Virus record (IMG/VR): IMGVR_UViG_3300046507_000547
DNA: 64,000 bases
Direction: 5' to 3' (one strand)
Source: an uncultured virus (IMG/VR IMGVR_UViG_3300046507_000547)
Taxonomy: Duplodnaviria > Heunggongvirae > Uroviricota > Caudoviricetes
The position numbers were made by a program, and so were the translations under genes. The notes beneath the pieces are model-generated. The model did not search any database, had not been told where the DNA came from, and worked only from the letters and a program-made list of their open reading frames with translations. Position 1 is the first letter of the stretch. Every line of letters starts with the position of its first letter. Of this stretch, positions 1,694 to 56,500 are shown one piece after another.

Positions 1694-2980
1694 CTAGCTT
1701 TCCGACCGCCTCAACCGCTCCTGGAGCCCGTCCCAACGCTCCTGCAACGTCTTCATGATGGCACGCTCCATCGGCACCGTCACGCTGCTGTAGATCCCCT
1801 CGACACCCGGCACCTCATGGCCCATCCGGGACTCCACCGCAAACTTGCTGTGGCCGTCCTCGTCCAGCCAGGCCTTCGCTCCATGCCGCAGCAGATACAG
1901 CCGCTTCCCCTTGAAGGTCGCCACCTCAGGAATCTTCGGCCTGGGCTTGCGCACACGCTCTCCATCGCGCGCATCGGCGCCGTCGGCGATGGGCCGCCAG
2001 TACTTGTAGTCGAAGTTCACCGCCCCCAGGCTGCCGCCCTCGATCGCCGGGAACACCCACCGGCTGTCATGCGAGGCGAGCAGCTGCTCCAGCAGCCCGG
2101 CCAGGAACGGCGGCACCACGAGCGTCCGGCTGCTGCCGTACTTCGGCGGGAAGAACCTCAGCTCCCCGTCTGCGTACTGAACTTGGCGTTCAACACGGAT
2201 CGCCGGCATCAGGTCGCCGCCCTTGCCGTAGCGCTCCGCGTCCTCCTCGTACCGCACCTCCTCGTCGGGATCCGCCTTCGGGTCGGAGCCCGGCCAGTTC
2301 GGATGGCAGTACTCACGGGTCAGCCCGTACAGCTCGGCTGGCCGCATGCCGGTCATGGCCATCGTCCACATGAAGACGTAGCCGGACTCGCCGAAGTAGG
2401 TGCGCGCGTTCTGTGCGAGCTGCTCGACGATCTCCGGGCGGACATCCTTCTTCCGCTCTTTCGGCTTCTTCGTGAACTTGCCGCGCCGCCTGGTGCGTTC
2501 GACGGGCGAGGTCTTCATGAGCCGGGGTACGGCGTCGTCGAGGACCATGCCGAGGACCATCATCACGTTCTTCGCGGACCCCGGCCCGACCGCACCGTTG
2601 GCGTACTTGCGGAAGGCCCGGTAGGCGAGGACGTCGATGTCGGCGACCGCGGTGTTCCGCTTCTTGAAGTACGGGCGAATATGGTTCTCGATCACCGACC
2701 GGTAGCCGCGCTCGGTCAGATGCGCGTGGTCCATGGAGGCAAGCCAGTCGTCAAGCCAGTCCGACATCAGGGTCTTGCCGTCGCGATTGGATACGTGATC
2801 GCCGCGCCGGATCTCCGACATCTTGTCGAGGCCGTGCTCGTAGGCGCTGTCCTCGTCGGTGAAACCGCCCTTGGACTCGAACCTTTTGCGGCCGTCGTCG
2901 TGAAACTCGCCGGTCCACCACTTCACGCGGCAGGTACCGCCGCGCCACTCGACATAGACGTCACGCGCTCGTCTGGCCAT
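1694..2980 (-). CDS. int: tyrosine recombinase / phage integrase
   Basis: TGMRPAELYGL (catalytic R), LYLLRHG (HxxR-box variant), RMGH...GIY (catalytic Tyr); N-terminal arm-binding region. Confidence 0.95.
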   Translation of the reverse strand: MARRARDVYVEWRGGTCRVKWWTGEFHDDGRKRFESKGGFTDEDSAYEHGLDKMSEIRRGDHVSNRDGKTLMSDWLDDWLASMDHAHLTERGYRSVIENHIRPYFKKRNTAVADIDVLAYRAFRKYANGAVGPGSAKNVMMVLGMVLDDAVPRLMKTSPVERTRRRGKFTKKPKERKKDVRPEIVEQLAQNARTYFGESGYVFMWTMAMTGMRPAELYGLTREYCHPNWPGSDPKADPDEEVRYEEDAERYGKGGDLMPAIRVERQVQYADGELRFFPPKYGSSRTLVVPPFLAGLLEQLLASHDSRWVFPAIEGGSLGAVNFDYKYWRPIADGADARDGERVRKPRPKIPEVATFKGKRLYLLRHGAKAWLDEDGHSKFAVESRMGHEVPGVEGIYSSVTVPMERAIMKTLQERWDGLQERLRRSES

Positions 2981-3055
2981 CTTCGCCCCTCGGATGCCGG
3001 TGGTGAGCGGACTCGGCGGTACCCCTACCGCCGAGACTCCGCATCACTCATGGTC

Positions 3056-3256
3056 TCAGCCAGCCTTGCCCAGCGGGCAGCCCTGGCATCCTCCGCACTT
3101 GCCACCGAGGCCTTGCACCAGATCGCGCATCGTTTCCTGAACTTCGACACGCCCCCACTGGCAGGGGATCACGCAGACGATCCCGTTGTCGACCTTGACG
3201 GCCTGACCTAGAAAGCCCGGCCCGTAGTCGGCTATGAGTGCGCCTTCTTGCATCAT
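3056..3256 (-). CDS. small Cys-rich hypothetical protein
   Basis: ORF between repressor and integrase; GGGGAG SD-like; C-terminal CGGCQGC. Confidence 0.5.
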   Translation of the reverse strand: MMQEGALIADYGPGFLGQAVKVDNGIVCVIPCQWGRVEVQETMRDLVQGLGGKCGGCQGCPLGKAG

Positions 3257-3416
3257 GGCTCCCCCTGTTAGGGCTTGAAGGGAGCCTCCAAGGGTGTGGC
3301 TTGAACTCTGCCACGTTCAGTGCCGGTTGCAACCACTTGCGTCACAAGAGGCGGGCTAGGTATCGATTACAGGGTCGATAAAGCAAATGGTTGTACGCCA
3401 ATTGAGTGAACTTCAG

Positions 3417-3833
3417 TCAGATCCGGCCACGCTTCTTGAGGTCTTGGACCACCCGATCACTCAGCGCCCGGATCTCATCGGCTGACAGCCCGGTCGTGGC
3501 GATCGCCGCCAGCTGCACGGTCTCGCGCACGTCTTCACTCAGATCCTCCCCCGTGAGGGTCGTCTTCACGGCACCGGGGGCGCCGCCCTCAACCGGCACG
3601 GCTCCTGTCGGATTCTCGCCGCGCAGGATCGCTTCACAGCTTCCGGCCGCCCACTGGAGCGCCGGCTCCATTTTGGCGTAGGTCCCGTCGCGGACCACGA
3701 GGCCGTCCTCGACGCGAGCCCAGGTGTCCTTCGAGATCTCTGCCGCCTTTGCTGCGGCCAGGCGTGACGGGAACAGGACGAGGCGTTGCGCCTTCACGGC
3801 TTTGGCGAGGGCAGCAAGGTCGGGTGTCGACAT
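3417..3833 (-). CDS. probable phage immunity repressor (HTH)
   Basis: SRLAAAKAAEISKDTWARVEDG HTH; divergent from the Cro-like gene; start placed at MSTPDL. Confidence 0.75.
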   Translation of the reverse strand: MSTPDLAALAKAVKAQRLVLFPSRLAAAKAAEISKDTWARVEDGLVVRDGTYAKMEPALQWAAGSCEAILRGENPTGAVPVEGGAPGAVKTTLTGEDLSEDVRETVQLAAIATTGLSADEIRALSDRVVQDLKKRGRI

Positions 3834-3839
3834 GGGGAC

Positions 3840-3999
3840 ATCTTGGCAGGGCCAGCCAGGGCCAGCTAGGACCAGGGGCAACTAAGGCCGAATCCTTGAC
3901 CAGCACGTTTGAGGTAGACCTAACTTCGGCTAGAAACGCAGTCCAATCTGTTCCTAACTAGAGCTAGACATCGAGGCTACTTAAGGCTAACTTCTAGGC
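3840..3999. promoter_or_regulatory. immunity switch: divergent promoters and candidate operators
   Basis: TAGACA(3965)-N17-TAACTT(3988)-N6-ATG; CTAACTnnnGCTAG at 3920-3933 and 3954-3967; GGGCCAGCYA tandem at 3849-3868. Confidence 0.55.
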
Positions 4000-4260
4000 A
4001 TGTACCAACCCCCAACCACCTTCCTGGTGAACGGGCCGAGAGCCCGTGAGCTGCGAAAGAACGCCGGGGTCGAACTCGCAGACATGGCCAGAAGTGCGCT
4101 GATCAGCCGGCGTTACCTCAGCCACATAGAGAACGGCACCCGCAAGCGCATGAGACCGGCCCCGTATCAGCGCCTGCGCAAGGCCCTGGGGGCGAACGAA
4201 ACCGAACTGATCTTGGCCCCACCCGAGACCACACCCCCCGAGGAGAACCCCAGTGCCTAG
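4000..4260 (+). CDS. Cro-like XRE HTH protein
   Basis: RELRKNAGVELADMARSALISRRYLSHIENG. Confidence 0.85.
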   Translation: MYQPPTTFLVNGPRARELRKNAGVELADMARSALISRRYLSHIENGTRKRMRPAPYQRLRKALGANETELILAPPETTPPEENPSA

Positions 4261-14626: not shown

Positions 14627-15457
14627 ATGCCTAGGAACACCGTACCCGCGCAGCGGGCCCCGCAGTACAAGGCCATGGAGATCACGCCCGACCTCGCCGA
14701 GAAGTGGCTCGCCCAGAACACCCACAACCGCAACCTGCGCGACAAGGCAGTCCTCGCCTACGCCCGCGACATGGAAGCCGGGAACTGGGCCGAGAACGGC
14801 GAGGCCGTCAAGTTCGGCAAGGACGGCACTCTCCTCGATGGCCAGCACCGCCTGCAGGCCATCGCGCTGTCCGGCGTCACCATCAAGATGCTCGTCGTCA
14901 CCGGGCTCGAGAGCGGCACGCAGGAAACCATGGACGACGGCCGCAAGCGGACCCTCTCCGACGCCCTGCACCTCCGCAACGAAACCAACTCGGTGATCCT
15001 CGGATCGCTGCTGCGTCGCGCACTGATGTGGGAGATGGGCCAGTACCGCAACACCGGCGCCTACACCCCGACGAACACCGAGTGCCTGACCTACCTGCTG
15101 CACCACCCGGACGTCCGCGCGTCCGCGTCGGCGGCTGCCTCGCTCCGCAAGCCGTCGCGACTGCCCGCGTCGGTGCTGGGCCTGACGCACTGGCTGTTCT
15201 CCCGCCTCGACGACGAGGACGCGGAGTGGTTCTTCGAGCGCCTCGGGTCGGGCGTCGGCCTCGAGCAGTACCACCCCGTCTGGACGCTGCGTAAGCGGGC
15301 CGCGGAGATCGCCGAGAGCTCCGGCCGGGTCCCTGAGGACATGCTCCTCGCCTTCGTCATCAAGGCCTGGAACGCCTACCGCGACGGCGACCAGATGCGT
15401 CTCCTGCGCTTCAAGCCGGGCGGCGCCACGCCGGAGAAGTTCCCCCTCCCGAAGTAG
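14627..15457 (+). CDS. ParB/Srx-like N-terminal domain protein
   Basis: ITPDLAEKWL..NTHNRNL, LLDGQHRLQAI, TMDDGRKR. Confidence 0.8.
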   Translation: MPRNTVPAQRAPQYKAMEITPDLAEKWLAQNTHNRNLRDKAVLAYARDMEAGNWAENGEAVKFGKDGTLLDGQHRLQAIALSGVTIKMLVVTGLESGTQETMDDGRKRTLSDALHLRNETNSVILGSLLRRALMWEMGQYRNTGAYTPTNTECLTYLLHHPDVRASASAAASLRKPSRLPASVLGLTHWLFSRLDDEDAEWFFERLGSGVGLEQYHPVWTLRKRAAEIAESSGRVPEDMLLAFVIKAWNAYRDGDQMRLLRFKPGGATPEKFPLPK

Positions 15458-17514: not shown

Positions 17515-17828
17515 CCCGCATCTGCCGCATCGACGACTGCACCAACCAGGCCAGGCCCGGCCGACGCGTATGCGACCCGTGCCGGGGCCGCCAGTGGCGT
17601 GAGCGCTACCGGCCCTCCATCTGGCGGGACGCCGACGATCACGACGTCGAACTGATCGTCCGCGATCCGCGGCCCGCCGAAGGGCTGACCAAGCTCGAAC
17701 GCGTCATGGTCGCCCGAGGTCTGACGGCACGGGATGTACCGGCCGAGGAGATCGCCCGGATCGTCGGCGTCACCCCGCGCAGCGTCTACCGCTGGCGGTC
17801 CGAGGGATTCAGGCAGGTGGCCGCATGA
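17511..17828 (+). CDS. HTH DNA-binding protein
   Basis: AEEIARIVGVTPRSVYRWR; N-terminal Cys cluster. Confidence 0.75.
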   Translation: MTRICRIDDCTNQARPGRRVCDPCRGRQWRERYRPSIWRDADDHDVELIVRDPRPAEGLTKLERVMVARGLTARDVPAEEIARIVGVTPRSVYRWRSEGFRQVAA

Positions 17829-18781
17829 CCGCCCCCTTCGCCATCCACCTCTTCGCCGGCCCGGGTGGTCTGGAGCACGGTGCCGGACTGCCCGGCATCG
17901 GCATCGAGCTGGACCCGAACGCGGTAGCCACCCGGATCGCCGCCGGCCTGGCCACGGTGCACGGCGACGTCACCCGCTACGGGCCCGCCGACATTCCGGC
18001 AACCGTCCTCACCGGCGGCCCGCCCTGCCAGACGTTCACGATCGCCGGCAACGGCGAAGGCCGCGCCGAGCTGGAGCGGGTCCTCGAAGGCGTCAAACTC
18101 CTCGAGGCCCGCGAGACCGTCGACCCGGGCATGTTCTCCGACCCGCGCACCGCCCTCGTCCTCGAACCCCTCCGCTGGATGCTCGAGGCCATCGACAAGG
18201 GCATCGGCTACAAGGCGATCGTCCTCGAGCAGGTACCGGCCGTCCTGCCCGTCTGGGAGGCCTACGCCGGCGTGCTGCGCCGCGAAGGCTACGGCGTCGC
18301 CACCGGGGTCCTGGCCACCGAGCAGTACGGGCTGCCGCAGACCCGCAAGCGGGCGGTGCTGATCGCCCGGCGCGGGGCCGACGTCGCACTGCCGAAGCCC
18401 ACCCACCGGCCGTACCGCAAAGGCGTCCCGCAGCACGAAGGCGACCCGGGCCTGCTGCCGTGGGTGTCGATGGGGGAGGCGCTCCCGCACCGCGGCCCGT
18501 TCACCGTGATCTCCAACTACGGCACCGGCGGCGACCCGAAGAACCGCGGCCGGCGCACGAGCGCCGAGCCGGCGTTCACCGTCACCGGGAAGATCTCGCG
18601 GCTGCGGCTCATCGACCCCGACGGCCGCGAACTCCCGCGGCTCACCGCCTCGGAGGCCGGAGTGCTGCAGGGCATGCCGGCCGACTGGCCGTGGTCCGGG
18701 AGCGACATAGCCCAGCAGATCGGGAACTTGTGCCCGCCCCCAATCGCCGCAGCCCTCGCACGAGCCGCGACTGCCGTGTGA
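17825..18781 (+). CDS. DNA (cytosine-5) methyltransferase
   Basis: LFAGPGG (motif I), GGPPCQ (IV), EQV (VI variant), YGLPQTRKR (VIII), QQIGN (X). Confidence 0.9.
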   Translation: MTAPFAIHLFAGPGGLEHGAGLPGIGIELDPNAVATRIAAGLATVHGDVTRYGPADIPATVLTGGPPCQTFTIAGNGEGRAELERVLEGVKLLEARETVDPGMFSDPRTALVLEPLRWMLEAIDKGIGYKAIVLEQVPAVLPVWEAYAGVLRREGYGVATGVLATEQYGLPQTRKRAVLIARRGADVALPKPTHRPYRKGVPQHEGDPGLLPWVSMGEALPHRGPFTVISNYGTGGDPKNRGRRTSAEPAFTVTGKISRLRLIDPDGRELPRLTASEAGVLQGMPADWPWSGSDIAQQIGNLCPPPIAAALARAATAV

Positions 18782-18902
18782 CGTCGCCCGTTGTTTGCCG
18801 CCCGACCCTCGGGCCGGGGAAACGGCGCACAGCCGCCCGACCGACAGGCCCGCCCGCAGTAGGCACAAACCCCAGCGAACCGCCCACCGAACGGAGAACC
18901 CC

Positions 18903-19631
18903 ATGACCGACCGACCCGCCCGAACGCCCAACGGCCTCCGAGTCCTCGACACGTACTGCTGCGGCGGCGGTATAGCCATGGGCTACTACCTCGCTGGTTT
19001 CGATGTCGTCGGCGTGGATATCGATCCGCAGCCGAATTATCCGTTCGAGTTCCACCAGGGCGACGCGGTGGAGTTCATCAAGGCCCACGGCCACGAGTTC
19101 GACTTCGGCCACGGCAGCCCGCCGTGCCAGCTGTACACGCCGCTGAACGCGTACAACCACAAGGTCTATCCCGACCTGATCGCCCCGACCCGGGCGGCGT
19201 TCGAGGCGGTCGGCCTGCCCTACGTGATCGAGAACGTGGAAGCGGCGGCGCCCGAGCTGCGGGACCCGACGCTGCTGTGCGGGCCGATGTTCGGCCTGAA
19301 GGTCTACCGGCACCGCCTGTTCGAGACGAACTGGGACCTGGCGGCGCCCGAGCACCCGAGGCACGTCGAGCGCTGCACGAGGAACGGCTACCTGCCCACC
19401 CCGGAGAAGCCGTTCATGTCGATCCACGGCGGCAAGCACTCCCGGGCCTGGCAGCGCGCGGCCTGCGACGCGATGGACATGCCGTGGATCAAGGTCCCGG
19501 AGGACGCCCGCATGGAACGCATCCAGCTCGGCATCCGCGAGGTCTGCGAAGCCATTCCGCCGGCCTATGCCCGGTGGATCGGGGAGCGGGCCGCCGAGCA
19601 CATCGCCGGCCAGCTGCCCGCCGCGGCGTGA
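18903..19631 (+). CDS. short C5-DNA-methyltransferase-like protein
   Basis: VLDTYCCGGG, VVGVDI, HGSPPCQ, YVIENV, RHRLFE, EAIPPAY. Confidence 0.8.
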   Translation: MTDRPARTPNGLRVLDTYCCGGGIAMGYYLAGFDVVGVDIDPQPNYPFEFHQGDAVEFIKAHGHEFDFGHGSPPCQLYTPLNAYNHKVYPDLIAPTRAAFEAVGLPYVIENVEAAAPELRDPTLLCGPMFGLKVYRHRLFETNWDLAAPEHPRHVERCTRNGYLPTPEKPFMSIHGGKHSRAWQRAACDAMDMPWIKVPEDARMERIQLGIREVCEAIPPAYARWIGERAAEHIAGQLPAAA

Positions 19632-23406: not shown

Positions 23407-24168
23407 TCAGAACTCGTACTCCAGCTCGTACAGATGACCCGCCTTGATCATGAACTCTGCCTGGATGGGGCGATCGTCCACGCTGTACGTCACGCGGAAC
23501 TGGCGCAGCACTGGCAGCTTCGTCGGCATCTTCAGCGCCCTCTGCTGCTGCGGAGTTGGCCACCGGGCAGCCACCTTGTCCACGCAACGGAGGGACGGGA
23601 GCCCCGCCTCGGCCAGCACTCGCCCCGCGCCGCCCTTGATGCGTCGACGTTCGGCGATCGGCGTTCCCCTGGCCAAGCCGAGGGGGAAGTAGACCTCCAC
23701 CAACTCGCAAGGCTCGTCGTCGAGGTACATCACCTGGCGGCGCAAAATCACGGTCTCGCCCTCGCCGAGTCCGAATGCCTCGCGCACGAGATGTGGCGGG
23801 ACAACCTCTTCGACGTCCAGGAGTTCCGAACGGCCCGTGAACCCCTTGCGCTCTGCGGCGGTGATCCACTGATACTTCCCGCCGTCGGCCGGAGGGTTCT
23901 TGTACTCGGCGGGCGTCATGGTCCGCTGGCGGTGCTCCCGGGCGTAGATCCCGGCGCCTCTGCGCGTGAAGACGAGGCCCTCCTTCTCCAGGATGCCCAT
24001 CGCGTTCTTGATCGTCTGAGCTGCGGCGCCGAACTCCTCGTTCAGCTTGCGGCTGGAGGGGAGCGGCTTGCCGGGCGGGAAGTCGCCGTTCAGGATGCCG
24101 TCGCGAAGGTAGGCGGCGATCTGGTCTTGAACGGGCCAGATGGATTCCTCTTCGTGCTGCTCTGCCAT
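23407..24168 (-). CDS. GntR/HutC-family (UTRA) repressor, KorSA/TraR-like
   Basis: QIAAYLRDGILNGDFPPGKPLPS wHTH plus UTRA domain; divergent from the transfer genes. Confidence 0.9.
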   Translation of the reverse strand: MAEQHEEESIWPVQDQIAAYLRDGILNGDFPPGKPLPSSRKLNEEFGAAAQTIKNAMGILEKEGLVFTRRGAGIYAREHRQRTMTPAEYKNPPADGGKYQWITAAERKGFTGRSELLDVEEVVPPHLVREAFGLGEGETVILRRQVMYLDDEPCELVEVYFPLGLARGTPIAERRRIKGGAGRVLAEAGLPSLRCVDKVAARWPTPQQQRALKMPTKLPVLRQFRVTYSVDDRPIQAEFMIKAGHLYELEYEF

Positions 24169-27623: not shown

Positions 27624-27758
27624 ATGACCGACAACAAGAAGCCCAACTGCTGGATCTGTGGCCAGCCGGGAGCCGAGCCGGAGCGGACGCTCCTCGGCTT
27701 CAAGAAGCCCATCTGCCCTCCCGGCAAGGGCTGCTCCCGGCCCCGCATTAAGCGCTAA
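27624..27758 (+). CDS. small Cys-rich protein (44 aa)
   Basis: GAGGA SD; MTDNKKPNCWICG...ICPPGKGC. Confidence 0.5.
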   Translation: MTDNKKPNCWICGQPGAEPERTLLGFKKPICPPGKGCSRPRIKR

Positions 27759-27814
27759 CCCCCACTGCGAGCCACCCCGTACCCACACCGAGTCCAGGAA
27801 GGACACCCAGCGCC

Positions 27815-29197
27815 ATGACTGCCAGTCCGCCGAAGGTGAACGGCCACACCCGGCCGCCTGCCCCGCTTGTGTTGGGGGACTGGCAGCCCATAGTGGCCAC
27901 CCCCACCCAGGCCGAAACCCCGACACCCCCCACCCCCGAGCCGACCGTCGAGTCCGACGTGGTCGCCCAGGCCAAGGCCGAGGCCATCCGCGCCGAAGCG
28001 TGGGCCAAGTCCGAAGAGCAGCGCATCGCCGCCGAAGCCGACGCCGAGGGGCGCCGCATCAAGGCGGAGGCCGACGCGAAGGCCACGGTCATCAAGGCCG
28101 AGGAGGATGCGCGCAAGCAGCGCATCGCCAACGACCGGGCCGAGGCCCGCTTCGAGGAAGAGCAGGCCGCCCGCGACGCCCGCATCGCCAAGTCCAATAA
28201 GGAGCGCAAGGAGACCGAGCGCGCGGAAGCCGACGCCGCCGTGCAGGACAAGATCGACAAGAAGGCCGCGGCGGAGTCCGCGAAGGTCGTCGCCAAGGCC
28301 GACAAGAAGTGGCGCGGCTGGGCCATCGCCTTCTACACCCTGTGCGCCACGGTCGCCCTCCCCGTCCAGATCTCCGCGTTCTGGAACCCGAACAAGCCGT
28401 GGATGGCCGGCGCCCCCGTCCTGCTGGAGATCGCGGCACTCGTCGTCGCGTTCGGTACGGCCGCGGCGGTGGCGAACCAGCGCCCGCACTGGCACTTCCG
28501 CCTGATCACCTGGGTGCTCGCGTTCATCGCCGCCAGCGTGAACTTCGGGCACGGCATCACCGAGTTCGACCTCGCGACCGCCATCGGTACCGCACTCGCC
28601 TCCATTTTCGGCCCTGGCGTGTGGGACCTGCACGAGCACGGCCGGATCCGCAAGCGCGACGGCATCCTGACGCGCCGCGAGCGCAAGGCGGCCAAGAAGG
28701 AAGCCGAGCAAATCGCCAAGGAGAAGGCCGCCGCGGAGGCGTCTCGCAAGGCCGAGAAGGAAGCCACCGACAAGGCCGCGGCCGAGGCGGCGAAGCAGCT
28801 CGCGGAGACTCGCGCCAAGGAGTTCCCGAAGGTGTGGGAGCACGCGCGAAAGCTGGCCGCAGACCTCGGCGAGACGACCATCACCGAGGCCATCTGGAAG
28901 CGCGCCAAACTCGACGTCGACGGGGCGCTCCCGGGTGAGTCGGCGGAGATCTTCCGCATGCGGAACGTAGCCCAGGCGCGCGTCGAATCTGCGCGCACCG
29001 GCGCCCCCGTCAACACCCTCAGCAAGACCACGAACGCGCAGCGTGCTGCTCAAATGCCCCCCGGTCCGAACCGGGTGCTGAAGACGCGAGCCACGCGCCG
29101 TCCCGGAGACACCCCGAAGTACGCGGGAGCCGCCCGGAAGCAGGCTGCCATCGCCGCCAAGAACGCCGCCAAGAACTCCCGCCCGAGCGACAACTAA
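27815..29197 (+). CDS. SpdB2/DUF2637-like membrane spread protein
   Basis: long N-terminal coiled coil, about 4 TM helices, C-terminal coiled coil; upstream of the TraB-like gene. Confidence 0.65.
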   Translation: MTASPPKVNGHTRPPAPLVLGDWQPIVATPTQAETPTPPTPEPTVESDVVAQAKAEAIRAEAWAKSEEQRIAAEADAEGRRIKAEADAKATVIKAEEDARKQRIANDRAEARFEEEQAARDARIAKSNKERKETERAEADAAVQDKIDKKAAAESAKVVAKADKKWRGWAIAFYTLCATVALPVQISAFWNPNKPWMAGAPVLLEIAALVVAFGTAAAVANQRPHWHFRLITWVLAFIAASVNFGHGITEFDLATAIGTALASIFGPGVWDLHEHGRIRKRDGILTRRERKAAKKEAEQIAKEKAAAEASRKAEKEATDKAAAEAAKQLAETRAKEFPKVWEHARKLAADLGETTITEAIWKRAKLDVDGALPGESAEIFRMRNVAQARVESARTGAPVNTLSKTTNAQRAAQMPPGPNRVLKTRATRRPGDTPKYAGAARKQAAIAAKNAAKNSRPSDN

Positions 29198-29220: not shown

Positions 29221-29814
29221 ATGAACCCGACCATTCGCCGGATCGCCGTCTCGGGCAGCGCGGCCGTAGCCCTCCTCGGAGGCGCCGCCGCCATCACCAC
29301 CGCGACCGCGCCGTCCACGCCCGCCGCCGAAATGCAGACCGTCATCGATCGGGCCACCGGCGCTCCGGTGAACATGCCGGACGGCCGCGTCGTCCACGTC
29401 CGCGGCATGGACGCCGCCGCCTACAAGGCCAGCCCCGAGCAGCACTCCGTGATCGTCCAGGCCGCCGCCAAGGCGGACACCACCGACCCGGCCGGTATCA
29501 CCACCGGGCTCACCGCCGACGGCGGGCAGGGCGCCGCCATCCAGAACCCCGTCACCGGCCAGCAGACCGGCTACAACCAGCAGATCACCACTCAGTCTGG
29601 TGGCGGCGTTGCGATCGGCGCGGGCGCCTTCGCGATGGTCGTGCTCGGACTGGTCGTCTTCTTCAAGATCAAGCACGGCAGCATCAAGGTCGGCGACGCC
29701 GTCCTCGTCGCATTCCTCGGTGTAGCGCTCAGCGGAACGGTCTTCGGCGTACTCGCCGGCAACCTCACCAACTCTGGCGCCACCACCGTCGGCAATCTCG
29801 TCAGCGGCCTCTGA
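29221..29814 (+). CDS. exported/membrane protein, Spd-like
   Basis: signal peptide plus two C-terminal hydrophobic helices (IKVGDAVLVAFLGVAL). Confidence 0.65.
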   Translation: MNPTIRRIAVSGSAAVALLGGAAAITTATAPSTPAAEMQTVIDRATGAPVNMPDGRVVHVRGMDAAAYKASPEQHSVIVQAAAKADTTDPAGITTGLTADGGQGAAIQNPVTGQQTGYNQQITTQSGGGVAIGAGAFAMVVLGLVVFFKIKHGSIKVGDAVLVAFLGVALSGTVFGVLAGNLTNSGATTVGNLVSGL

Positions 29815-29871: not shown

Positions 29872-32109
29872 GTGGCCACCGAAACTCACCAGCCCGACGA
29901 GAACATCAAGGCGCCCAGCGCGGACGCCGGGCGCTGGGACACGCACAAGGCGAAGGCCAAGTCCGCCTACGGCCAGCAGAAGCAGAACGCCTGGAAGCGG
30001 CTCGACGCCTTCTTCACCACCGCCGACATCGACGACCACCGCCTCGCAGAACAGGTCGTCGAAGCCAAGCGGCGCAAAGCACAGCAGCAGGACGACCACC
30101 TGCTGCGCGAGGTCGCCAGCATCAACGGCAGGCTCGCCAACGCCCGCGTTCACGCGGCCCAGCAGGGCAAGGAGACCACCCCGCAGGTAGAGCGGATTCG
30201 CGGAGAACTCGCCGCGGCGCAGGCCCGCGTCGAGACCCGAGCGGCCGAGGGCCCGTTGATCGCCGTCGTGCCCCCGACCCACAAGGAAGTTGACCGCGCC
30301 CGCTGGACGAAGAAGGCCACCCGCGTCGCAGCAGTTTTGGCCGGCGGCTACGGCTACCTGCAGGGCATCTTCGTCGAGCCCGGACTAATCCTCCTTTCCA
30401 TCCCCGCCGCGGGCTTCGGCTGGTGGTACCTGTCCCGCCCGCACGTCGAGGAGCCCGCGGAGACCGAGGTCCCTTTCGGTCTGACCCCGGCCAGCCTGCC
30501 CGCCACGTTCCAGGCGGATCCGGCCGGGGAAGCGACGCCGATCGTCGGCGGGAACGTCGTCATGTCCGTCGAGCAGCTGCCCGAAGGCGCCAAGCCGTTC
30601 CCGATTCGGGGAGCGCGCACCCCTGACCAGCTCGCCCAGTGCGTGCTGCTGGCCGCAAAGTCCGAGAGCGTGCCGATCGTCGAGGTGTCGGACGTGCGAC
30701 GGCAGCCGTGGGGCTGGCAGTGCGTTGTCCGCGTAAGCGAAGGCACCCCCGAAGCGCTCATTACGAAGAGCGGCGACCTTGAGACCCGCTTCGACCTGCC
30801 CACCAATGGGGTCCGGCCGCAGCCGATCAAGGCCCGGCGGGCGTGCGCCATCCTGCGCCTGGTCGACGGCGACCCGTTCGCCACCGCCCCCGGTCTGTCG
30901 TACCGCGCCCCCAAGTCGATGTCGATCACCGACAAGTTCCGCATCGGCACATCCGTCGGCGGCGACCCACTGGAGCTGTCCCTGGCCGGCGTGATGGGCC
31001 TGTGGGTGGCAGCCTCAGGGGGCGGCAAGACGGGCATCCTTCAGGCGCTCGCCGAGGGAACGGCCGCCTGCTATGACAACATCACCATCGACCTCGACCC
31101 GCACGGTGACGGACTGGAGGATCTCGGCGACTGCGTGCGGATCACCGCGCGGACCAATGAGCAGATCGAGGCCGTACTGCTGTTCTTCCTGGTCATGTCG
31201 AAGGCGCGCGCTCGTCTGCGGCAGAAGCTGGGCATGGGTAAGAAGTGGAAGGCCAGCGCCAAGCACCCCGCGGTCACGATCTTCTTTGACGAGTTCCCGA
31301 AGGCCACCGACCTTGCGAAGAAGCTGGCGTTCGACCTGCTGCTCGTCGGCCGCAAGGAGCTCATTGAGGTGGAGATCGCCTCGCAGGGTGGGCAGAAGGG
31401 GTATCTCGGCGAGAACTTCGCGCAGATGGTCGCCTTGAAGGCCGTTGGCCCGTGCAAGGTCGGCGACACTCGCGCCGTGTTCGGCGACGGCTCCGTCAAC
31501 GAGGGCTACCTGCCGCACAAACTGTCCCCGGCCACCGACACCGACCCCAAGGACGCCGGCCACATCTACCTTCAGGGCGTTCCCGGCCGACCCGACGAGC
31601 CGATCGAGTACGCCATCCACGAGACGCCGTCGGCGACCCTGCGGAAGCTCGCCGAGGAGCGCCTCGAAGCCGGTCTGGTCGAGCCCGACCAGGACAGTCT
31701 CGACGCGATGCGCGGCGTGGACCTGCCCGAATATGTCGAGGCCACCTACGACAACGACGGCAACATCAAGAAGGACGCCCCGGTCGAACTCCTCACCTGG
31801 GATCAGCTGCTGCGACTGTGTGGCGCCCAGCCTATTGAGCGCGGACCGCTCGAGGACGGGGCTCCTAGGCGGGCGGTCGAGGATTCAGTCGCGGTCATGG
31901 AGAAGGCGGACGTCGACCGGATGAAGACCGAGACGCTCCTCGCCGCCGTGCAGGAGTACGACCTTGACGTCTACGGCCTGATGACGGCCGAGGAGTTCAA
32001 GGCGCTGATGAAGAAGGCCGGCGCCGGGGCCCCGATCACGCTCGGTCCGATCGGCGAGGAGAAGAGTCCGCGCGGCTTCAAGCGTGATCGGCTCCGCCAC
32101 CTGCTGTGA
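29872..32109 (+). CDS. FtsK/SpoIIIE-family DNA translocase, TraB-like conjugal transfer protein
   Basis: two TM segments, Walker A AASGGGKT, Walker B IFFDE, LVGRK..SQ, C-terminal wHTH-like domain; followed by an 8-bp repeat array. Confidence 0.8.
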   Translation: MATETHQPDENIKAPSADAGRWDTHKAKAKSAYGQQKQNAWKRLDAFFTTADIDDHRLAEQVVEAKRRKAQQQDDHLLREVASINGRLANARVHAAQQGKETTPQVERIRGELAAAQARVETRAAEGPLIAVVPPTHKEVDRARWTKKATRVAAVLAGGYGYLQGIFVEPGLILLSIPAAGFGWWYLSRPHVEEPAETEVPFGLTPASLPATFQADPAGEATPIVGGNVVMSVEQLPEGAKPFPIRGARTPDQLAQCVLLAAKSESVPIVEVSDVRRQPWGWQCVVRVSEGTPEALITKSGDLETRFDLPTNGVRPQPIKARRACAILRLVDGDPFATAPGLSYRAPKSMSITDKFRIGTSVGGDPLELSLAGVMGLWVAASGGGKTGILQALAEGTAACYDNITIDLDPHGDGLEDLGDCVRITARTNEQIEAVLLFFLVMSKARARLRQKLGMGKKWKASAKHPAVTIFFDEFPKATDLAKKLAFDLLLVGRKELIEVEIASQGGQKGYLGENFAQMVALKAVGPCKVGDTRAVFGDGSVNEGYLPHKLSPATDTDPKDAGHIYLQGVPGRPDEPIEYAIHETPSATLRKLAEERLEAGLVEPDQDSLDAMRGVDLPEYVEATYDNDGNIKKDAPVELLTWDQLLRLCGAQPIERGPLEDGAPRRAVEDSVAVMEKADVDRMKTETLLAAVQEYDLDVYGLMTAEEFKALMKKAGAGAPITLGPIGEEKSPRGFKRDRLRHLL

Positions 32110-32131
32110 CCGGTACGCGAACTATGTACCC

Positions 32132-32300
32132 CTGATCAGGGCCTGCTCAGCTCTGCTCACGCCGCAAAGCCGCAGGTCACAGCTGCTCAGCCTACTGCTC
32201 AGGGCCTGCTCAACGACTGCTCTGAGCAGCGTGTGAGCAGCTCCCTGAGCAGCCCTGACCTGCACGTTTACCCGCTGAGCAGGCCTGAGCAGTAAGAGCA
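32132..32300. repeat. clt-like locus: mirror-symmetric array of CTGCTCAG 8-mers
   Basis: forward copies (some with 1-2 mismatches) start at 32143, 32153, 32183, 32195, 32206, 32217; reverse copies end at 32229, 32240, 32252, 32282, 32292. Confidence 0.8.
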
Positions 32301-32329
32301 AACCCCAACAAACCGAACGGAACCCCTCC

Positions 32330-32515
32330 ATGCCCCAGAACCTGCACCACCAGATCATCACCGCCTACGAGCGCACCGTCGAGCCCTACATGGCCCGCGG
32401 CGACAAGAAGGCGGCGGCCCGCGGGATCCAGGCCCTCGTCAACCGGTACGGAACCGACGCCGTCGAGACGGCCCTCGAAGACCTGGTCCTCCAGTACGAG
32501 CTCAAGGGCCTCTAA
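32330..32515 (+). CDS. hypothetical protein
   Basis: ORF, high GC3. Confidence 0.6.
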   Translation: MPQNLHHQIITAYERTVEPYMARGDKKAAARGIQALVNRYGTDAVETALEDLVLQYELKGL

Positions 32516-32538
32516 CCCCAACCCGAAGGAGATCTGCC

Positions 32539-32940
32539 ATGCCCAAGACCTGGAGTCCTGGCGACGCGAAGAGGTTCGCGCGTCAGGTACAGCTCGGCAA
32601 GACCTACTACACGGTCAACGCGCACGCCCGGAACCTCGGCGCCTACGAGGACACCCACACCTACAGCGAGCATGTCTTCGACTCCCGGCGCCCGTTCACC
32701 GGCACCCCGTGCTCCGGTGCGGTCGACGCGGTCACCCTGTGCCAGCGCTTCGGCCCCGTGTACGAGCAGCCGCCCCGCGGCCTCCGCAACCTCGCCGGGC
32801 CCGCCCCACAGGTTGCGAGCCCTCTCGGCGACAACTACGACGCGCCCCTCGACGAGCTCGAACTTCGCGGCTTGGAGAAGCACGTCGGCCAGACCCTGAG
32901 CCCCCGCCAGCGCCGCGCCCTCAACGCCCGACGCCCGTAA
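32539..32940 (+). CDS. hypothetical protein
   Basis: AAGGAG SD. Confidence 0.7.
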   Translation: MPKTWSPGDAKRFARQVQLGKTYYTVNAHARNLGAYEDTHTYSEHVFDSRRPFTGTPCSGAVDAVTLCQRFGPVYEQPPRGLRNLAGPAPQVASPLGDNYDAPLDELELRGLEKHVGQTLSPRQRRALNARRP

Positions 32941-39470: not shown

Positions 39471-39860
39471 ATGCCTTCAGATTTCCCGCCTGGTCTCGGT
39501 GAACGAGGTTCCCGGCTCTGGCGGGAGGCTTCGGCGTCTTGGTCTCTGACTCCAGCGCACTCGGTGCTATTGGAGGAGGCTTGCCGTATCGCCGACCGGC
39601 TCGATGTGCTCAACTCCATAATCCTGCGGGTGTCTTCGCAGGTCAATGGGGATGACGACGAGTCTTCGGGTGAATCCGTAGACATCTCGGGGGTATTGGC
39701 GGAGTCCCGGCAGCAGGCGACTGCTCTTCGGGGTCTTATCGCCGAGATTCGGCAGGGCCAGAAGGGCACTACTGCGGTTCCGGCAGAGACGTCTGGGGGT
39801 TCGGGTGTCTCGGACCTCTCGGCGCGAATCGCGGAAAGGCGCAAGCAAGCCCAGGGTTGA
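39471..39860 (+). CDS. terS: terminase small subunit
   Basis: PPGLGERGSRLW..LLEEACRIADRLD; position before terL. Confidence 0.75.
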   Translation: MPSDFPPGLGERGSRLWREASASWSLTPAHSVLLEEACRIADRLDVLNSIILRVSSQVNGDDDESSGESVDISGVLAESRQQATALRGLIAEIRQGQKGTTAVPAETSGGSGVSDLSARIAERRKQAQG

Positions 39861-41337
39861 GCTGTCGCCGCCTTACGAGTACACGCTCGGCCCGGAGGCG
39901 TGCGAGCTGGCGAAGCGAGCCGGCCTGGTCGCGGATCCGTGGCAGGCGGATGCGGTGAATCTGATGCTGGCCTGCCGCGATGACGGCAAGTGGGCGTGTT
40001 ACGAGTACGGGGAGATCGTGGCCCGGCAGAACGGAAAGGGCTCGATCCTCGAGATCCGGGCTCTGGCCGGGTTTCTGCTGCTGGGCGAGCAGCTGATCAT
40101 GTGGTCGGCGCACGAGTACAAGACGTCGATGGAGGCGTTCCGGCGGTGTCGGACGCTGCTGCGGCGACTGGGCAAGCAGGTCAACCCGAATAACGAGAAC
40201 CTGTGGGACGTCGACGGTGTTCTCGTCAAGGTCGTCAACACGAACGGCGAGGAAGGCTTCGAGCGTCTCGACACTGAGGCCCGCATCAAGTTCGTGGCCC
40301 GCAGCAAGGGTTCGGGCCGTGGCTTCTCCGGTGACCTGGTCATCATCGACGAGTCGTTCGCATTCACGGCGGAGCAGCAGGACGCGCTGATGCCCGCGAT
40401 GGCGGCCCGCCCGAACGCGCAGATCATCTACACCTCGTCGCCGCCGCTGAACGGCGAGTCCGGCGAGGTCATGTTCAACCTGAAGCGCCGGGCGGATGCG
40501 GGCGGCGACGACAGTCTGGGCTGGCGGGACTGGGGCATCGAGGGCGACCTCGACCATCTCGATGACCTGGACTTGGACGACCGCAGTTTGTGGGCGGCGT
40601 CGAATCCGGCGCTGGGGATGCGGCTGACGGAGGAGACGATCCTGCGTGAGCGCCGCTCGATGGGCAACGCAGGCTTTGCGCGGGAGCGGCTGTGTATCTG
40701 GCCGAAGATCTCGCAGGGCAACACGGTCGTGGATCCGGCGGCGTGGGCGCGACTGACGGATGGCGGGTCGCAGCGCGATCGCGAGGGCGGCGTAGCGCTC
40801 GGCATCGACATCTCGCCGCTCAGGGATTACGCCGCGGTGTGCGTGTACGGGCTGCGCGAGGACGGTCTCGGCCATGTGCAGCTCGCGGACTATCGGCCGG
40901 GTACGAAGTGGCTGATCCCGCGGCTGGTGGAGCTGCGGGAGGCTCTGGAGCCGGTGGCGCTCGCGATGGGGCGCGGCACGTTCGCGTTCCTGGAGACGGC
41001 CCTGGATAAGGCGGGGTTTCAGCGGCCGGAGGATTCGGAGGCGCCGGCATCGGGCGATCTGGCGGTGACGAACGCGGTCGACATGGCCGCGGCGGCCGGC
41101 CAGTTGCTGGAGGCGGTCCGCGAGGAGTCGTTCCGTGTGGTGCCGAACCGGCATCTGGACGTGTCGGTCGCCTCGGCGAAGACCAGGACGACCGGCGAGA
41201 CGATCGCGTGGACGACGAAGGGCGTGGAGGGCGACATCAGCCCCCTTGTGGCGATGACGCTTGCCCGCTGGTCCTACATGACCCGCTCCCACCTGCTTGA
41301 GGGCAGCCAGTACGACGTTCTGCAATCGGTGTTCTGA
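39805..41337 (+). CDS. terL: terminase large subunit
   Basis: DPWQ, VARQNGKG (Walker A), LVIIDES (Walker B), SNPALG, FARERL, DISPLVA; start approximate. Confidence 0.93.
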   Translation: MSRTSRRESRKGASKPRVELSPPYEYTLGPEACELAKRAGLVADPWQADAVNLMLACRDDGKWACYEYGEIVARQNGKGSILEIRALAGFLLLGEQLIMWSAHEYKTSMEAFRRCRTLLRRLGKQVNPNNENLWDVDGVLVKVVNTNGEEGFERLDTEARIKFVARSKGSGRGFSGDLVIIDESFAFTAEQQDALMPAMAARPNAQIIYTSSPPLNGESGEVMFNLKRRADAGGDDSLGWRDWGIEGDLDHLDDLDLDDRSLWAASNPALGMRLTEETILRERRSMGNAGFARERLCIWPKISQGNTVVDPAAWARLTDGGSQRDREGGVALGIDISPLRDYAAVCVYGLREDGLGHVQLADYRPGTKWLIPRLVELREALEPVALAMGRGTFAFLETALDKAGFQRPEDSEAPASGDLAVTNAVDMAAAAGQLLEAVREESFRVVPNRHLDVSVASAKTRTTGETIAWTTKGVEGDISPLVAMTLARWSYMTRSHLLEGSQYDVLQSVF

Positions 41338-53528: not shown

Positions 53529-56500
53529 ATGACCAGTTCCAGCATCGTCTACCGGCTCATCGCCCACGACAGCGCATCCCGCACCTTCAATACCGTGGGC
53601 CGGTCGGCGAGCAGCACGGAGCGCACGCTCGCGAAGCTCGGCCAGACCGCCGTCAAGGCGGGCGCGGCCATGGCTGCCGGGCTCGCGGTGGGACTGGGTG
53701 AGTCGGCGAAGAAGGCAGCCGAGTTCCAGTCCGAGATGACTCGGATCTCGACGCAGGCCGGCGGCACCGCGAAGGACGTCAAAGTCCTGTCGGATCAGGT
53801 GCTGAAGCTGGGCACGTCTACCCAGCAGGGTCCGCAGCACCTCGCCGAATCGCTGTACCACCTGAAGAGCGTCGGCATGGACAACGTGTCGGCGATGAAG
53901 GCGCTGAAGGAGTCCGCGGACCTGGCCGCGGTCGGCCACGCCAACCTTGAGGAGACCACCAACGCCCTGGCGGGCGCCTGGCGTACCGGCATCAAGGGCG
54001 CCACCTCGTTCCACGAGGCTGTCTCCACGGTCAACGCGATCATCGGCGCGGGCAACATGAGCATGGACGCTTTCAACGCGGCCATCGGTACCGGCATCCT
54101 GCCCTCGGCGAAGACGTTCGGCCTGTCGATGAAGCAAGTCGGTGCCGCCTTGGCCCTGATGACGGACGAGGGTATCGACTCTGCGTCGGCCGCTACCCGG
54201 CTGCGCATGAGCTTCTCGCTGCTCGGCGCCCCGTCTAAGGCGGCAGAAAAGCAGCTCGGGAAAATCGGGCTCACCGGCCTGAACTTGGCCGACGCGATGC
54301 GCGGCCCCAAGGGTTTGATCGGCGCCATCGGACTGTTGAAGGAGCACCTCGACAAGTCGGGGCTGTCCGCATCGAAGCAGTCCCAGCTGCTGTCCCGCGC
54401 GTTCGGCGGGGGCCGTTCCTCGAGCGGCATCCTGCTCATGCTCAACAACCTCGACGTGCTCGAGAAGAAGCAGGAGCAGATCAACCGATCGACGGGCAAG
54501 TTCGACGACGCGGTCAAGATGCAGCGCAAGACCGCCGAGGCCCAATGGCACCTGCTCACCTCGAACCTCGAAGTAATGGGCATCCGGGTCGGCACGAAGG
54601 TGCTGCCCCCGGTCACCAGCTTCATCCACTTCCTGGCCACCGATGCGATGCCGACCGCCGCGCGCTTCGGCCGCGCCATGGCCGCGATCGTTCCCGTGGA
54701 TCAGATCAAGCAAGGATTCTCCCAAGCGCAGGGCATGGTCGGAGACTTCCTCAAGGGCTTCTCCGGGACCAAGAAGGCCACCTCGGATCTTCTGGGCGGC
54801 CTGTTCGATACATCGCCACACCTGGGCAGCAGCAAGGCGTCCGTGGCCTCCAAGGGGCCCGCGTTGGCGCCGATGCCGCACTTCGGCGTGGGTCAGGTGG
54901 CGCCCACCACCGGTGTGCAGGGGCCTGCCCTGGCGCCTATGCCGCACGGTGGGTCGGGGCTGGTGGCCTCGCTCGTGTCGCCGAAGGCGAAGCCGCCCAA
55001 GAGTGCTGCTCAGAAGATCGGCGAGACGATTCGCCGGGCCATCTCTGGCGGCTTCAAGGACATCAACTGGGGCAACCTGGGCTCGATCCTCGGCAAGGGC
55101 CTCGGGGATGCGATCGGCTGGGTCGGGAAGCACACCGCCGACTTCACCAAGAAGATCGCGAAGGTCTTCGCTGGCCTGGACTTCGTCGAGATCGGCAAGG
55201 GCTTCGGGGCGTCCGCGATTCCGCTCGCGATCGGCTTCATCAAGTCGGTGTTCGACCCCCTGTTCAGCCTCGACTTCTGGAAGAAGCACTGGCTCGACAC
55301 GATCCTTGCGGTCATCTCGATCATCCCGATCGGTCGCGTCGCCGGAGTACTCGGCAAGGTCTTCGAGCACATCCCGTTCCTGAAGGTCTTCGAGCCGCTA
55401 CTCAAGGGCGTCGGGAAGCTCGGCGGCTGGATCGAGAAGGCCTTCGGCAAGGCCGTGAAGTTCTTCGGTACGAACCTGTGGAGGGGGCTCGCCAAGGTCT
55501 TCCCTGAGGCCGCAAGCGTCGTTGAACGCGAAAGCGGGCTGCTCACCACGCGCATCGGCGTGTGGGGCATCAAGCTGATGGACAAGGGCAAGGCCGCCAT
55601 CCACTTCCTGGGCAACGGCATCCGTGATGGAGCCGGCTGGGTCATTGCGAAAGTCGGCGAGATCGTCGGCCTCGTCGTGAAGCCTTTCGTCAAGGCTGGC
55701 GGCTGGCTGATCCGCAAGGGTGCCGACGTCGCGCGGGGCTTCGGCGGCGGTATCGCCCGGGGCGGCCGGAGCATTGGCGGCTTCGCCAAGAAGTGGGTCA
55801 TCGACCCGGTTGTTGGCGCCTTCTCGCGTGCCGGGTCGTGGCTGCTGTCCAAGGGGCGTGCGCTCGTCTCCGGTTTCAGGGGCGGCGTGAGTGCTGGCGC
55901 GAAGGCGATCGGGGGCTGGGTGTTCGACCGCATCTTGGTGCCCGTCGCCAACTGGATGGCCAGATCCGGAAGGTGGCTGATCGGCAAGGGCAGTGCGCTG
56001 GTGTCCGGCTTCAAGTCGGGCGTCAGCGCCGGGGCCAAGGTGATCGGGAGCTGGACGATTTCGCACATCGTCAGCCCGGTTCTGAGCCGCTTCACCAAGG
56101 CGGGCGGCTGGCTCGTGAGCAAGGGCGGCTCGCTGATCTCCGGCTTCAAGAGCGGGATCGTCGGAACGATGAAGGGCATCGGCTCTTGGATCAAGAAGAC
56201 CATGGTCGATCCCGTCGTCAACGCGGTGAAGCACTTCTTCGGCATCCGCTCGCCCAGCCGCGTTTTCATGGGCATCGGCGGCCACATCGTCTCCGGCCTC
56301 ATGAAGGGCATGGCGAAGACCAGCGGCACGGCCATCGCGAAGAAGGTCTTCGGCAGCTTGCCCAAGGCCCTCGGATCGATCGTCAAGAAGGGCTTGGTCA
56401 GCATCACCAAACTGCCCGGGAAGGCCCTCAAGGCGCTCGGTGGGCTGGGCGGCGACGTTCTCGGTCTCCTTGGTCTGGGCGGGAGCGGCGGCGGCTCGTC

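Follow-up and report, generated by a model that had tools for sequence, protein, structure and literature searches.

Conjugation in Streptomyces moves uncut double-stranded DNA (dsDNA) through a single FtsK-like pump, with the loading of the pump ring and the direction of pumping unsettled. TraB of pSVH1 forms hexameric pores and reads repeated 8-bp motifs through helix α3 of the winged helix-turn-helix domain at its C terminus (PMC3583192, PMC4447253, PMC4170104), and TraA of pWTY27 footprints on 7-bp repeats, the 175-bp clt of this plasmid including the last 16 bp of traA (PMC3583192). The repeats of pSVH1/pJV1-type clt loci are described as direct 8-bp repeats (PMC4447253), and the clt loci of pIJ101, pJV1, and pWTY27 also hold inverted repeats (PMC3583192). 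Here we describe a repeat array at positions 32132-32292 of a 64,000-nucleotide stretch of DNA (the window) from an uncultured tailed virus (IMG/VR record IMGVR_UViG_3300046507_000547), which is a prophage of a Streptomyces-like host. The array lies directly behind a gene (29872-32109, + strand) for a 745-residue TraB-like protein with a divergent FtsK/SpoIIIE-type P-loop motor and a C-terminal winged helix. Sites of the clt type are already known; the array is a real, conserved array that is predicted to bind protein. From its sequence we give a probability of about 0.65 to the reading that 32132-32292 is a putative cis-acting, clt-like site at which the TraB-like dsDNA pump of the same prophage docks. 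This reading is preferred because all relatives examined, the conjugative plasmid pFP1 among them, have the array directly behind a TraB-like gene, because the repeat word and the wing region of the pump change together between lineages, and because conservation falls on the units and their positions and not on pairing between the arms.

The mirrored array and described transfer loci

The array fills the 220-bp gap between the stop codon of the TraB-like gene (32109) and the next gene (32330), with the first unit placed 23 bp past the stop. It is composed of 12 units of 8 bp resembling CTG[C/A]TCAG within 161 bp, seven forward and five reverse, counted with one mismatch to the 8-mer allowed. 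The outer left units (32132-32160, + strand) are CTGATCAG at 32132, which is itself palindromic, CTGCTCAG at 32143, and CTGCTCAC at 32153, and the inner left units (32183-32224, + strand) are CTGCTCAG at 32183 and again at 32195, CTGCTCAA at 32206, and CTGCTCTG at 32217, the last overlapping the first reverse unit at 32222. The inner right units (32222-32252, - strand) start at 32222, 32233 (GTGAGCAG), and 32245, and the outer right units (32275-32292, - strand) start at 32275 and 32285. A second kind of word is set among the units, with the left bracket word GCAGGTCA at 32172-32179 (+ strand) and the right bracket word TGACCTGC at 32256-32263 (- strand) lying 84 bp apart center to center. The slot beside the left bracket word (32162-32171) is empty of a unit and holds a conserved CAAA tract, mirrored by a TTT tract at 32264-32274. 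Start-to-start spacings along the array are 11, 10, 19, 11, 12, 11, and 11 bp on the left, 5 bp at the center, and 11, 12, 11, 19, and 10 bp on the right.

A single dyad axis at 32217-32218 relates the two members of each of five unit pairs and also the two bracket words. The initial annotation had paired five forward with five reverse copies, and all five sums are indeed 64435, two of the five forward and one of the five reverse copies being 7/8 matches to the word. The pairing it gave for GCAGGTCA at 32172 with TGACCTGC ending at 32263 has the same sum and falls on the same dyad (32217/32218), and what it overlooked is that these two words form an element separate from the units, fixed while the unit word varies by lineage. 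Its description of the array as precisely mirror-symmetric is right for the five pairs on one dyad and goes too far for the whole, as seven forward units face five reverse ones and the units at 32132 and 32217 are unpaired. The dominant dyad collects 16 inverted pairs of six-mers compared with seven for the runner-up.

Eight exact copies of CTGCTCAG occur in the window, seven of them within 32143-32292 (three on the + strand and four on the - strand), with the eighth at 55006. After dinucleotide shuffling the window contains 2.59 copies on average, and 8 are reached in 1 of 100 shuffles. For word counts in the host, a related 11-Mb genome (G001) stands in. It holds 494 copies of CTGCTCAG (251 forward and 243 reverse) compared with 571 (298 and 273) of a reversed-word control, so that the word is neither enriched nor skewed there. 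This background predicts 0.0067 copies per 150 bp and a Poisson chance of ~1e-19 (lambda^7/7!) for seven exact copies in 150 bp. The array is read as noncoding because the G+C content at third codon positions (GC3) of the open reading frames (ORFs) overlapping it, 0.62-0.76, lies below that of the flanking genes, 0.88-0.95. Contigs of related populations vary from the window at no fewer than eight places within 32143-32292. Among the places listed, spacers hold six, a unit holds one (32276), and the last falls on the opening base of the right bracket word (32256), which gives no more than a weak hint that the units are conserved.

The sequences on either side of the array also have a recognizable form. 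On the left, the segment from the stop codon to the first unit (32110-32131) reads CCG-TA-G-GAA-TATGTACCC with two TATG/ATGT words and is conserved in the close group. On the right, a CAAAC-rich leader (32296-32329, + strand), with the consensus GAaCAAACCAccaCAAAcc over 21 arrays, extends from the array to the next gene; the form GAACAAACCACCACAAACC precedes the ribosome-binding site of that gene and is kept even in relatives of 30-56% identity. The leader is also present in distant relatives such as L035, L037, and L050.

The comparison with pWTY27, which is by description, shows a noncoding site abutting or overlapping the 3' end of a tra gene in both elements. The pWTY27 clt is described as ~160-175 bp long with 7-bp repeats and inverted repeats, bound specifically by Tra in vitro, and needed for transfer (PMC3583192). 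It differs from the window array in having four direct copies of one word together with a second word in place of a 7 + 5 mirrored set with bracket words; binding is shown for pWTY27 and putative here (PMC3583192). With the clt of pSVH1, its TRS repeats, and TraB, the prophage locus shares an FtsK-like pump, a C-terminal winged helix (predicted here), and 8-bp words on the element's own DNA. Unlike pSVH1, the arms are inverted here, and the pump is too divergent for the Pfam FtsK_SpoIIIE model. The word of pSVH1 is reportedly GACCCGGA, which is unrelated to CTGCTCAG.

The conjugative plasmid pFP1 (NC_006912.1) encodes a homologous pump, 35% identical over the motor, in a gene order equal to that of the window: GntR, DUF2637-like, tra, array. 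After the tra stop codon pFP1 carries in turn GCAGGTCA, four copies of CTCTAC, GTAGAG, TGACCTGC, and a further GTAGAG, and seven of the 13 CTCTAC/GTAGAG copies of the plasmid lie within ~120 bp (27713-27831). The differences are in the unit, CTCTAC in place of the 8-mer, in the bracket spacing of 106 bp (start to start of the 8-mers), and in the element itself, pFP1 being a plasmid with phage structural genes absent from the annotation of its record whereas the window is a tailed prophage.

Array design across relatives

Relatives of the pump at 60-79% identity are found at 14 Streptomyces genome loci and on 13 IMG/VR viral contigs. At E <= 1e-40 the pump is matched in 24 of 401 sampled Streptomyces genomes (25 loci), down to 30% identity, and tblastn against plasmids returns 44 records, all below 60% identity. 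Arrays were taken from the 330 bases 3' of the TraB-like ORF stop, and dropping identical copies leaves 49 distinct arrays; statistics for the close group use 20 distinct close arrays. In the relatives fetched, across Streptomyces prophages, chromosomes, and plasmids, an array of a repeated 6-7-mer follows the TraB-like stop codon, and in nearly every one forward copies of the word come first and reverse copies second around one dominant dyad. Over the 49 arrays the word is forward on the left 149 times and on the right 38 times, and reverse on the left 23 times and on the right 149 times, the exceptions including near-palindromic CTGATC words and arrays with a poor automatic dyad. The gene 3' of the array varies among the relatives, and the array and the pump gene stay together.

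The word itself is particular to the lineage. The close group has CTG[CA]TCAG; CTGCTCG is found in L001, L003, L004, and L032; CTGCTA/GCTA-type words in L033, L037, L028, and part of L010; GGGTGCT in L035 and L036; GTGACG/GGGCGTGA in L039, L041, and L042; GCTCTAC in L046; TGCGTCC in L052; and CCCGGAC in L013. In a linear plasmid of 24 kb the mirrored array is built of CCGATCA, and of the bracket words only the right one is present. L001 is a 92.6-kb circular Streptomyces plasmid (CP042280.1, a record without annotation) with its CTGCTCG-unit array after a TraB-like frame that seems to be divided between two ORFs (locus positions 2075-3733 and 3529-4134); a search of plasmids with the major capsid protein of the prophage did not match this plasmid, and we do not class it as a phage-plasmid.

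Spacing is common to the arrays. The helical phasing noted at first from unit spacings of 10-12 bp in the window recurs over the 49 arrays, where 123 of 261 same-strand neighbor distances are 10-12 bp, 34 are 20-23, 31 are 30-33, 17 are 40-44, and 15 are 50-54. These distances are multiples of the helical turn, and the units are therefore placed on one face of the duplex. The slots are likewise stable in the close group when a slot is called occupied at seven or more of eight positions matching CTGMTCAG. The outer left slots (32132, 32143, and 32153) are occupied in 20, 19, and 18 of the 20 close arrays, the inner left slots (32183, 32195, 32206, and 32217) in 15, 18, 18, and 17, the inner right slots (32222, 32233, and 32245) in 16, 18, and 16, and the two outer right slots in 18 each, and the next slot at 32296 is not a unit (0 of 20). 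The slot by the left bracket word has the consensus CCGCAAAC and scores as a unit in none of the 20. Beside each bracket word a conserved CAAA/TTT tract stands in place of a unit, which gives the design of 12 units and two brackets.

The array can also be viewed as one long imperfect hairpin, into which the strand folds with -92.4 kcal/mol as RNA (z -6.0) and -52.4 kcal/mol as DNA (z -5.5), none of 200 shuffles folding as well. Repeated complementary words suffice to produce this fold. An RNA or single-stranded DNA hairpin, serving as a tail-less terminator or stabilizer of the pump mRNA 3' end or as a single-strand transfer or replication element, would explain the energies and also the joint change of left and right words between lineages, which resembles compensation. 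It is nonetheless very improbable as the selected feature. Across the dyad of the window, complementarity holds at 45 of 48 unit positions compared with 6 of 27 spacer positions. Over the 20 close arrays the columns that belong to units pair in 87% of 960 cells and those that belong to spacers in 35% of 500 cells, within the 21-42% of 20 slid-dyad controls; the early remark that the spacers are mostly not complementary is borne out at both levels. Mirror-partner units are identical in only 9, 3, 6, 5, and 3 of the 20 arrays for the five pairs (the partners of the bracket pair in 14 of 20), and a variant such as CTGATCAG or CTGCTCAC in one arm goes unmatched in the other. The stem segments of a hairpin could each have a word of their own, helical-phase spacing has no meaning for a hairpin, and on the + strand no terminator-like site or T-run follows the stem. 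Because each unit is a near-word by itself, positions are kept, and spacers pair at chance, the pattern across these sequences argues that the units and their positions are selected as duplex protein sites and not for pairing of the arms in a hairpin or cruciform.

Pump tail, repeat word, and bracket words

The pump sequence shows a Walker A motif (ASGGGKTG) and a Walker B motif (DEF), and a hydrophobic stretch is seen by eye around residues 150-190. The protein matches PHROG 12531 ("FtsK/SpoIIIE-like") at 6.4e-66, and its nearest named ESM Atlas clusters carry PF01580 with a score of 0.96. Searches with the single protein (phmmer) and with a narrow family profile (A2) found neither a solved relative nor kinship to FtsK. 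A diverse profile (A3) that includes relatives of 30-45% identity has EccC and FtsK as its best PDB profile matches (E 0.002-0.008), and hhalign places it against the host FtsK motor with a probability of 81.7% (E 1.1e-5) over 225 columns extending from Walker A past Walker B. On these comparisons the pump is assigned as a very divergent FtsK/SpoIIIE-type motor.

The last 105 residues (encoded by 31792-32106, + strand) are composed of a flexible linker and a predicted winged helix in the order H1-b1-H2-H3-b2-wing-b3-H4. The AlphaFold2 model of this tail, built from 33 sequences, has a mean pLDDT of 86.9 with the linker at low confidence. An exhaustive structure aligner returns winged-helix proteins as all of the nearest folds (best Z 6.8, others 5-5.9), and Foldseek finds nothing at E <= 0.001, its top rows being winged-helix proteins. 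The gamma domain of FtsK is not among the listed fold neighbors. The model thus predicts that the C terminus of the pump is a winged helix.

In the region of strand β2 and the wing, the tails fall into classes that go with the repeat word. TLG[PQ]IG occurs with CTG[CA]TCA, SLGPLD/PLGPMG with CTGCTCG, QLGA[WFM] with GCTA-type words on three backbones of 56-66% overall identity, and SIGAVDG with GGGTGCT. Judged from these alignments, the co-variation is suggestive, and not decisive, for the tail as the reader of the units. One relative, L013, shows both parts altered together. Its pump is 70% identical overall and its tail, from the linker on, 27% identical, and its array is built of CCCGGAC without bracket words. 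The replacement comprises the last ~95 codons and the following 200 bp, in which CCCGGAC/GTCCGGG words are framed by a CCGATAT-type inverted pair. This looks like a swap of tail and array as one module at the domain boundary; a search of plasmids with the replaced tail gave no match. The initial clt-like assignment is partly supported, by the position after TraB-like genes, by the lineage words that track the wing, and by the conservation of the units.

Several observations weigh against the docking-site reading. The repeats are direct within an arm and inverted between the arms, which departs from the direct orientation described for clt repeats, and direct orientation is not strictly defining for clt because the loci of pIJ101, pJV1, and pWTY27 include inverted repeats. 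The link between tail and array is confounded because adjacent DNA recombines together whether or not its parts interact, and the classes of tail and word also follow phylogeny. Within the close group, near-identical tails occur with arrays rich in CTGCTCAG or rich in CTGATCG (L002 compared with L018), and the tail comparison gave no single-residue rule of specificity for CTGCTCAG as against CTGATCAG arrays. Tails that have diverged to 30-35% identity are accompanied by unchanged bracket words, and the variable part of the tail is therefore no explanation for them; on this evidence the bracket words may have a second binder. The kinship of the motor to FtsK is, on sequence comparison, only remote, the 745-residue protein matching no Pfam family even at E <= 5 and PF01580 in particular being unmatched; PF01580 scanned over G001 missed the homologous gene there.

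A last point of this kind is the RepA site of pWTY27, which also has opposed sets of 8-mers with nonpairing spacers. This iteron, IR2, is described as five 8-bp repeats and five complementary ones in a long discontinuous inverted repeat with unprotected spacers (PMC3583192). By this likeness the array would be an iteron-type replication origin with the units as initiator sites, and the helical phasing of the units and the lower G+C content of the array (0.63 compared with 0.68 for the window) are in keeping with an origin. We hold this to be quite improbable. IR2 is beside repA and bound by RepA, whereas the conserved neighbor in all 49 arrays is the TraB-like gene and not a rep gene. No initiator family is recognized in the adjacent ORFs, a weak blank as ORFs without a family could hide one. 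The pFP1 array likewise follows tra, the replication locus of that plasmid being of the repA/iteron type (PMC3583192), and the word classes track the pump tail.

The bracket words persist where unit word and pump tail differ strongly. GCAGGTCA is present in 18 of 20 main-group arrays, and of the 49 distinct arrays 33 carry the hexamer pair GCAGGT...ACCTGC and 16 lack one or both of its words. The start-to-start distance of the hexamers is 86 in 23 arrays, 87-90 in 6, 98 in 3, and 107 in 1, and the 8-mer pairs are 84, ~96, or 105 bp apart center to center, which at 10.5 bp per turn comes near to 8, 9, and 10 turns. A search of IMG/VR for the bracket pair alone at a gap of 76 nt returns 69 stretches compared with 9 for an off-phase control gap of 71 nt. 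Of these, 27 have a TraB-like ORF (tblastn E < 1e-5) that is directed at the near word and stops 45-92 bp short of it, and three more (L077, L086, and L132) have mirrored arrays without a tblastn match. The other 39 resemble unrelated coding sequence or other repeat families. Five IMG/VR stretches (L083, L090, L133, L136, and L144) carry a different family, with several copies of GCAGGTCAGAG/CTGACCTGC beside a GGATTCCGGAATCC palindrome and no TraB-like gene within 2.6 kb; from its sequence this family may be the same word in use by another type of element.

Within the window GCAGGTCA occurs 14 times, seven per strand, compared with 2.4 in shuffles and ~5 predicted from the rate in G001. Twelve copies are outside the array, at 619, 1638, 5136, 10442, 11864, 16002, 35304, 39336, 39638, 40176, 44596, and 52483. 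Some of these lie near gene ends; the copy at 1638 is beside the integrase gene, and the one at 39638 shortly precedes the terminase gene. The outside copies may be extra sites for the reader of the bracket words or a product of codon usage (GAC-CTG).

KOPS and SRS are polar 8-bp words that are read by the winged helix of the FtsK/SpoIIIE gamma domain and, on chromosomes, point in opposite directions on either side of a fixed point. They are scattered and strand-skewed over the replichores, unlike the array words, as neither CTGCTCAG nor GCAGGTCA is enriched or skewed in G001. The counts for GCAGGTCA are 445 and 487 on the two strands (932) compared with 413 and 360 (773) for the control, with no chromosome-wide polar signal. 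An apparent KOPS-like run of 100 + strand copies of GCAGGTCA was rejected as an artifact of listing order, the right arm having 15 forward and 20 reverse copies in 400 kb. Two other roles considered for the bracket words were also set aside. A promoter reading was rejected, as no sigma-70-like site is found in 31800-32700 and no -10 element is seen by eye at the right distance. A likeness to the sps bound by SpdA2 was dropped, as sps is described as a 12-bp palindrome inside or beside spdA (PMC4170104).

The constancy of the bracket words across very different tails bears on a further alternative, that the array serves another protein of the element or host, as a partition centromere or as an operator of downstream late or spread genes, with the pump tail uninvolved. 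Centromere and operator arrays typically hold short phased repeats that run both ways, at least the bracket words may have a conserved reader, and the leader between the array and the next gene is conserved. We consider this reading unlikely. Against it, the region searched (31800-32700) shows no sigma-70-like promoter, and the downstream gene varies among relatives while array and pump gene remain joined. The candidate ParB-like gene of the initial annotation (14627-15457) is 17 kb from the array and has no counterpart beside the pFP1 array, the ParA gene of that plasmid being 16 kb away. The unit classes also follow the pump tail.

The prophage, pump loading, and spread

The window is a tailed prophage with an integrase gene (1694-2980, - strand), a RecE-like exonuclease, two DNA methyltransferases, and genes for the terminase large subunit (TerL, 39805-41337), portal, major capsid, and tape-measure proteins. 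A blastn search against a phage collection gave no match. The methyltransferase genes are adjacent in the early region (17825-19631), one being a Pfam C-5 cytosine methylase and the other matching PHROG methyltransferase families only. Recognition sites of terminases can be arrays of short repeats, and in an element with TerL the array might serve packaging, as a pac or cos site for the small terminase. This is scarcely credible, as the array is 7.5 kb upstream of TerL and the same design is present in pFP1 and in the 24-kb linear plasmid; phage structural genes are missing from the annotation of the pFP1 record and of a 6.4-kb stretch of the 24-kb plasmid. Another Streptomyces element, pZL12 (Zhong et al. 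2010), is reportedly an autonomous plasmid-phage with tailed-phage genes and a tra locus; unlike it, the window element has an integrase gene and the gene set of an integrating prophage.

The genes around the pump form a transfer-type module. At its head is a GntR/UTRA-family regulator (23407-24168, - strand; Pfam GntR 2.8e-16, UTRA 5.9e-17) that is 28% identical to the GntR product of pFP1 (E 4e-12) and, by position, may be termed Kor/TraR-like. Farther on is a gene for a 460-residue protein (27815-29197, + strand) distantly related to the DUF2637 membrane protein encoded ahead of tra in pFP1 (BLASTP, 27% identity over 149 amino acids, E 2e-9); Pfam, NCBIfam, and PHROG gave no family match for the 460-residue protein. 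A 33-bp tandem repeat of 2.2 copies (28031-28103) is contained in the Ala/Lys/Glu-rich region of this gene. A 197-residue ORF (29221-29814, + strand; GC3 0.90) lies between the membrane protein gene and the pump gene, and two small genes of 61 and 133 residues (32330-32940, + strand) follow the array; searches of the same three collections gave no family for any of these. The 61-residue ORF (32330-32515) is present only in the window and a few relatives (L008 and L016), and most relatives start with an MPKTW-type gene.

For the docking-site reading, the published work on pSVH1 TraB and pWTY27 TraA suggests by analogy that the winged-helix tails of the pump subunits would read the units. As the units lie on one helix face, many tails could bind side by side on the phased units and, on the same analogy, would nucleate assembly of a ring around the uncut duplex. 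Judged from the symmetry alone, the two arms would offer opposite polarity, and rings might be loaded either way round; the initial annotation likewise proposed two-way loading or a wrapped complex. A more specific form, in which two opposed pump hexamers would be loaded on the array as a platform of two-fold symmetry, is tentative and on the present sequence comparisons rather doubtful. In such a platform the 12 units would match the 12 winged-helix tails of two rings. The bracket words, which face the same side because 84 bp is eight helical turns, would bring the rings into register with each other, perhaps by way of a host factor or of some conserved part of the pump. The oppositely loaded rings would then reel in both flanks at once, and an uncut circular or integrated duplex would cross the septum as a loop. 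Loading of two rings fits the scenario of bidirectional mobilization drawn for integrated elements (PMC11571958).

The literature searched did not yield the fixed frame of two opposed phased arms or its presence in dozens of viral contigs, nor invariant bracket words an integral number of turns apart that are common to pFP1-type plasmids and tailed prophages; the pFP1 paper may map the site. For the loading problem in Streptomyces conjugation, the family offers a clean site design of 12 phased units, two opposed arms, lineage-specific words, and two fixed framing words. If true, the loading of two rings would explain how Streptomyces elements transfer covalently closed dsDNA and how an integrated element drags chromosomal DNA both ways, and the design would be a family-wide rule of pFP1-type transfer systems, in plasmids and tailed prophages alike. 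A remark on SpdB2 homologues on actinophages is the published form of the idea that phages may spread without virions (PMC4447253). The site and its pump are found inside complete tailed prophages, with a TraB-like gene in 27 of the 69 bracket-pair stretches and at the 13 protein-based IMG/VR loci, and this placement supports the view that some temperate actinophages may spread through the mycelium virion-free.

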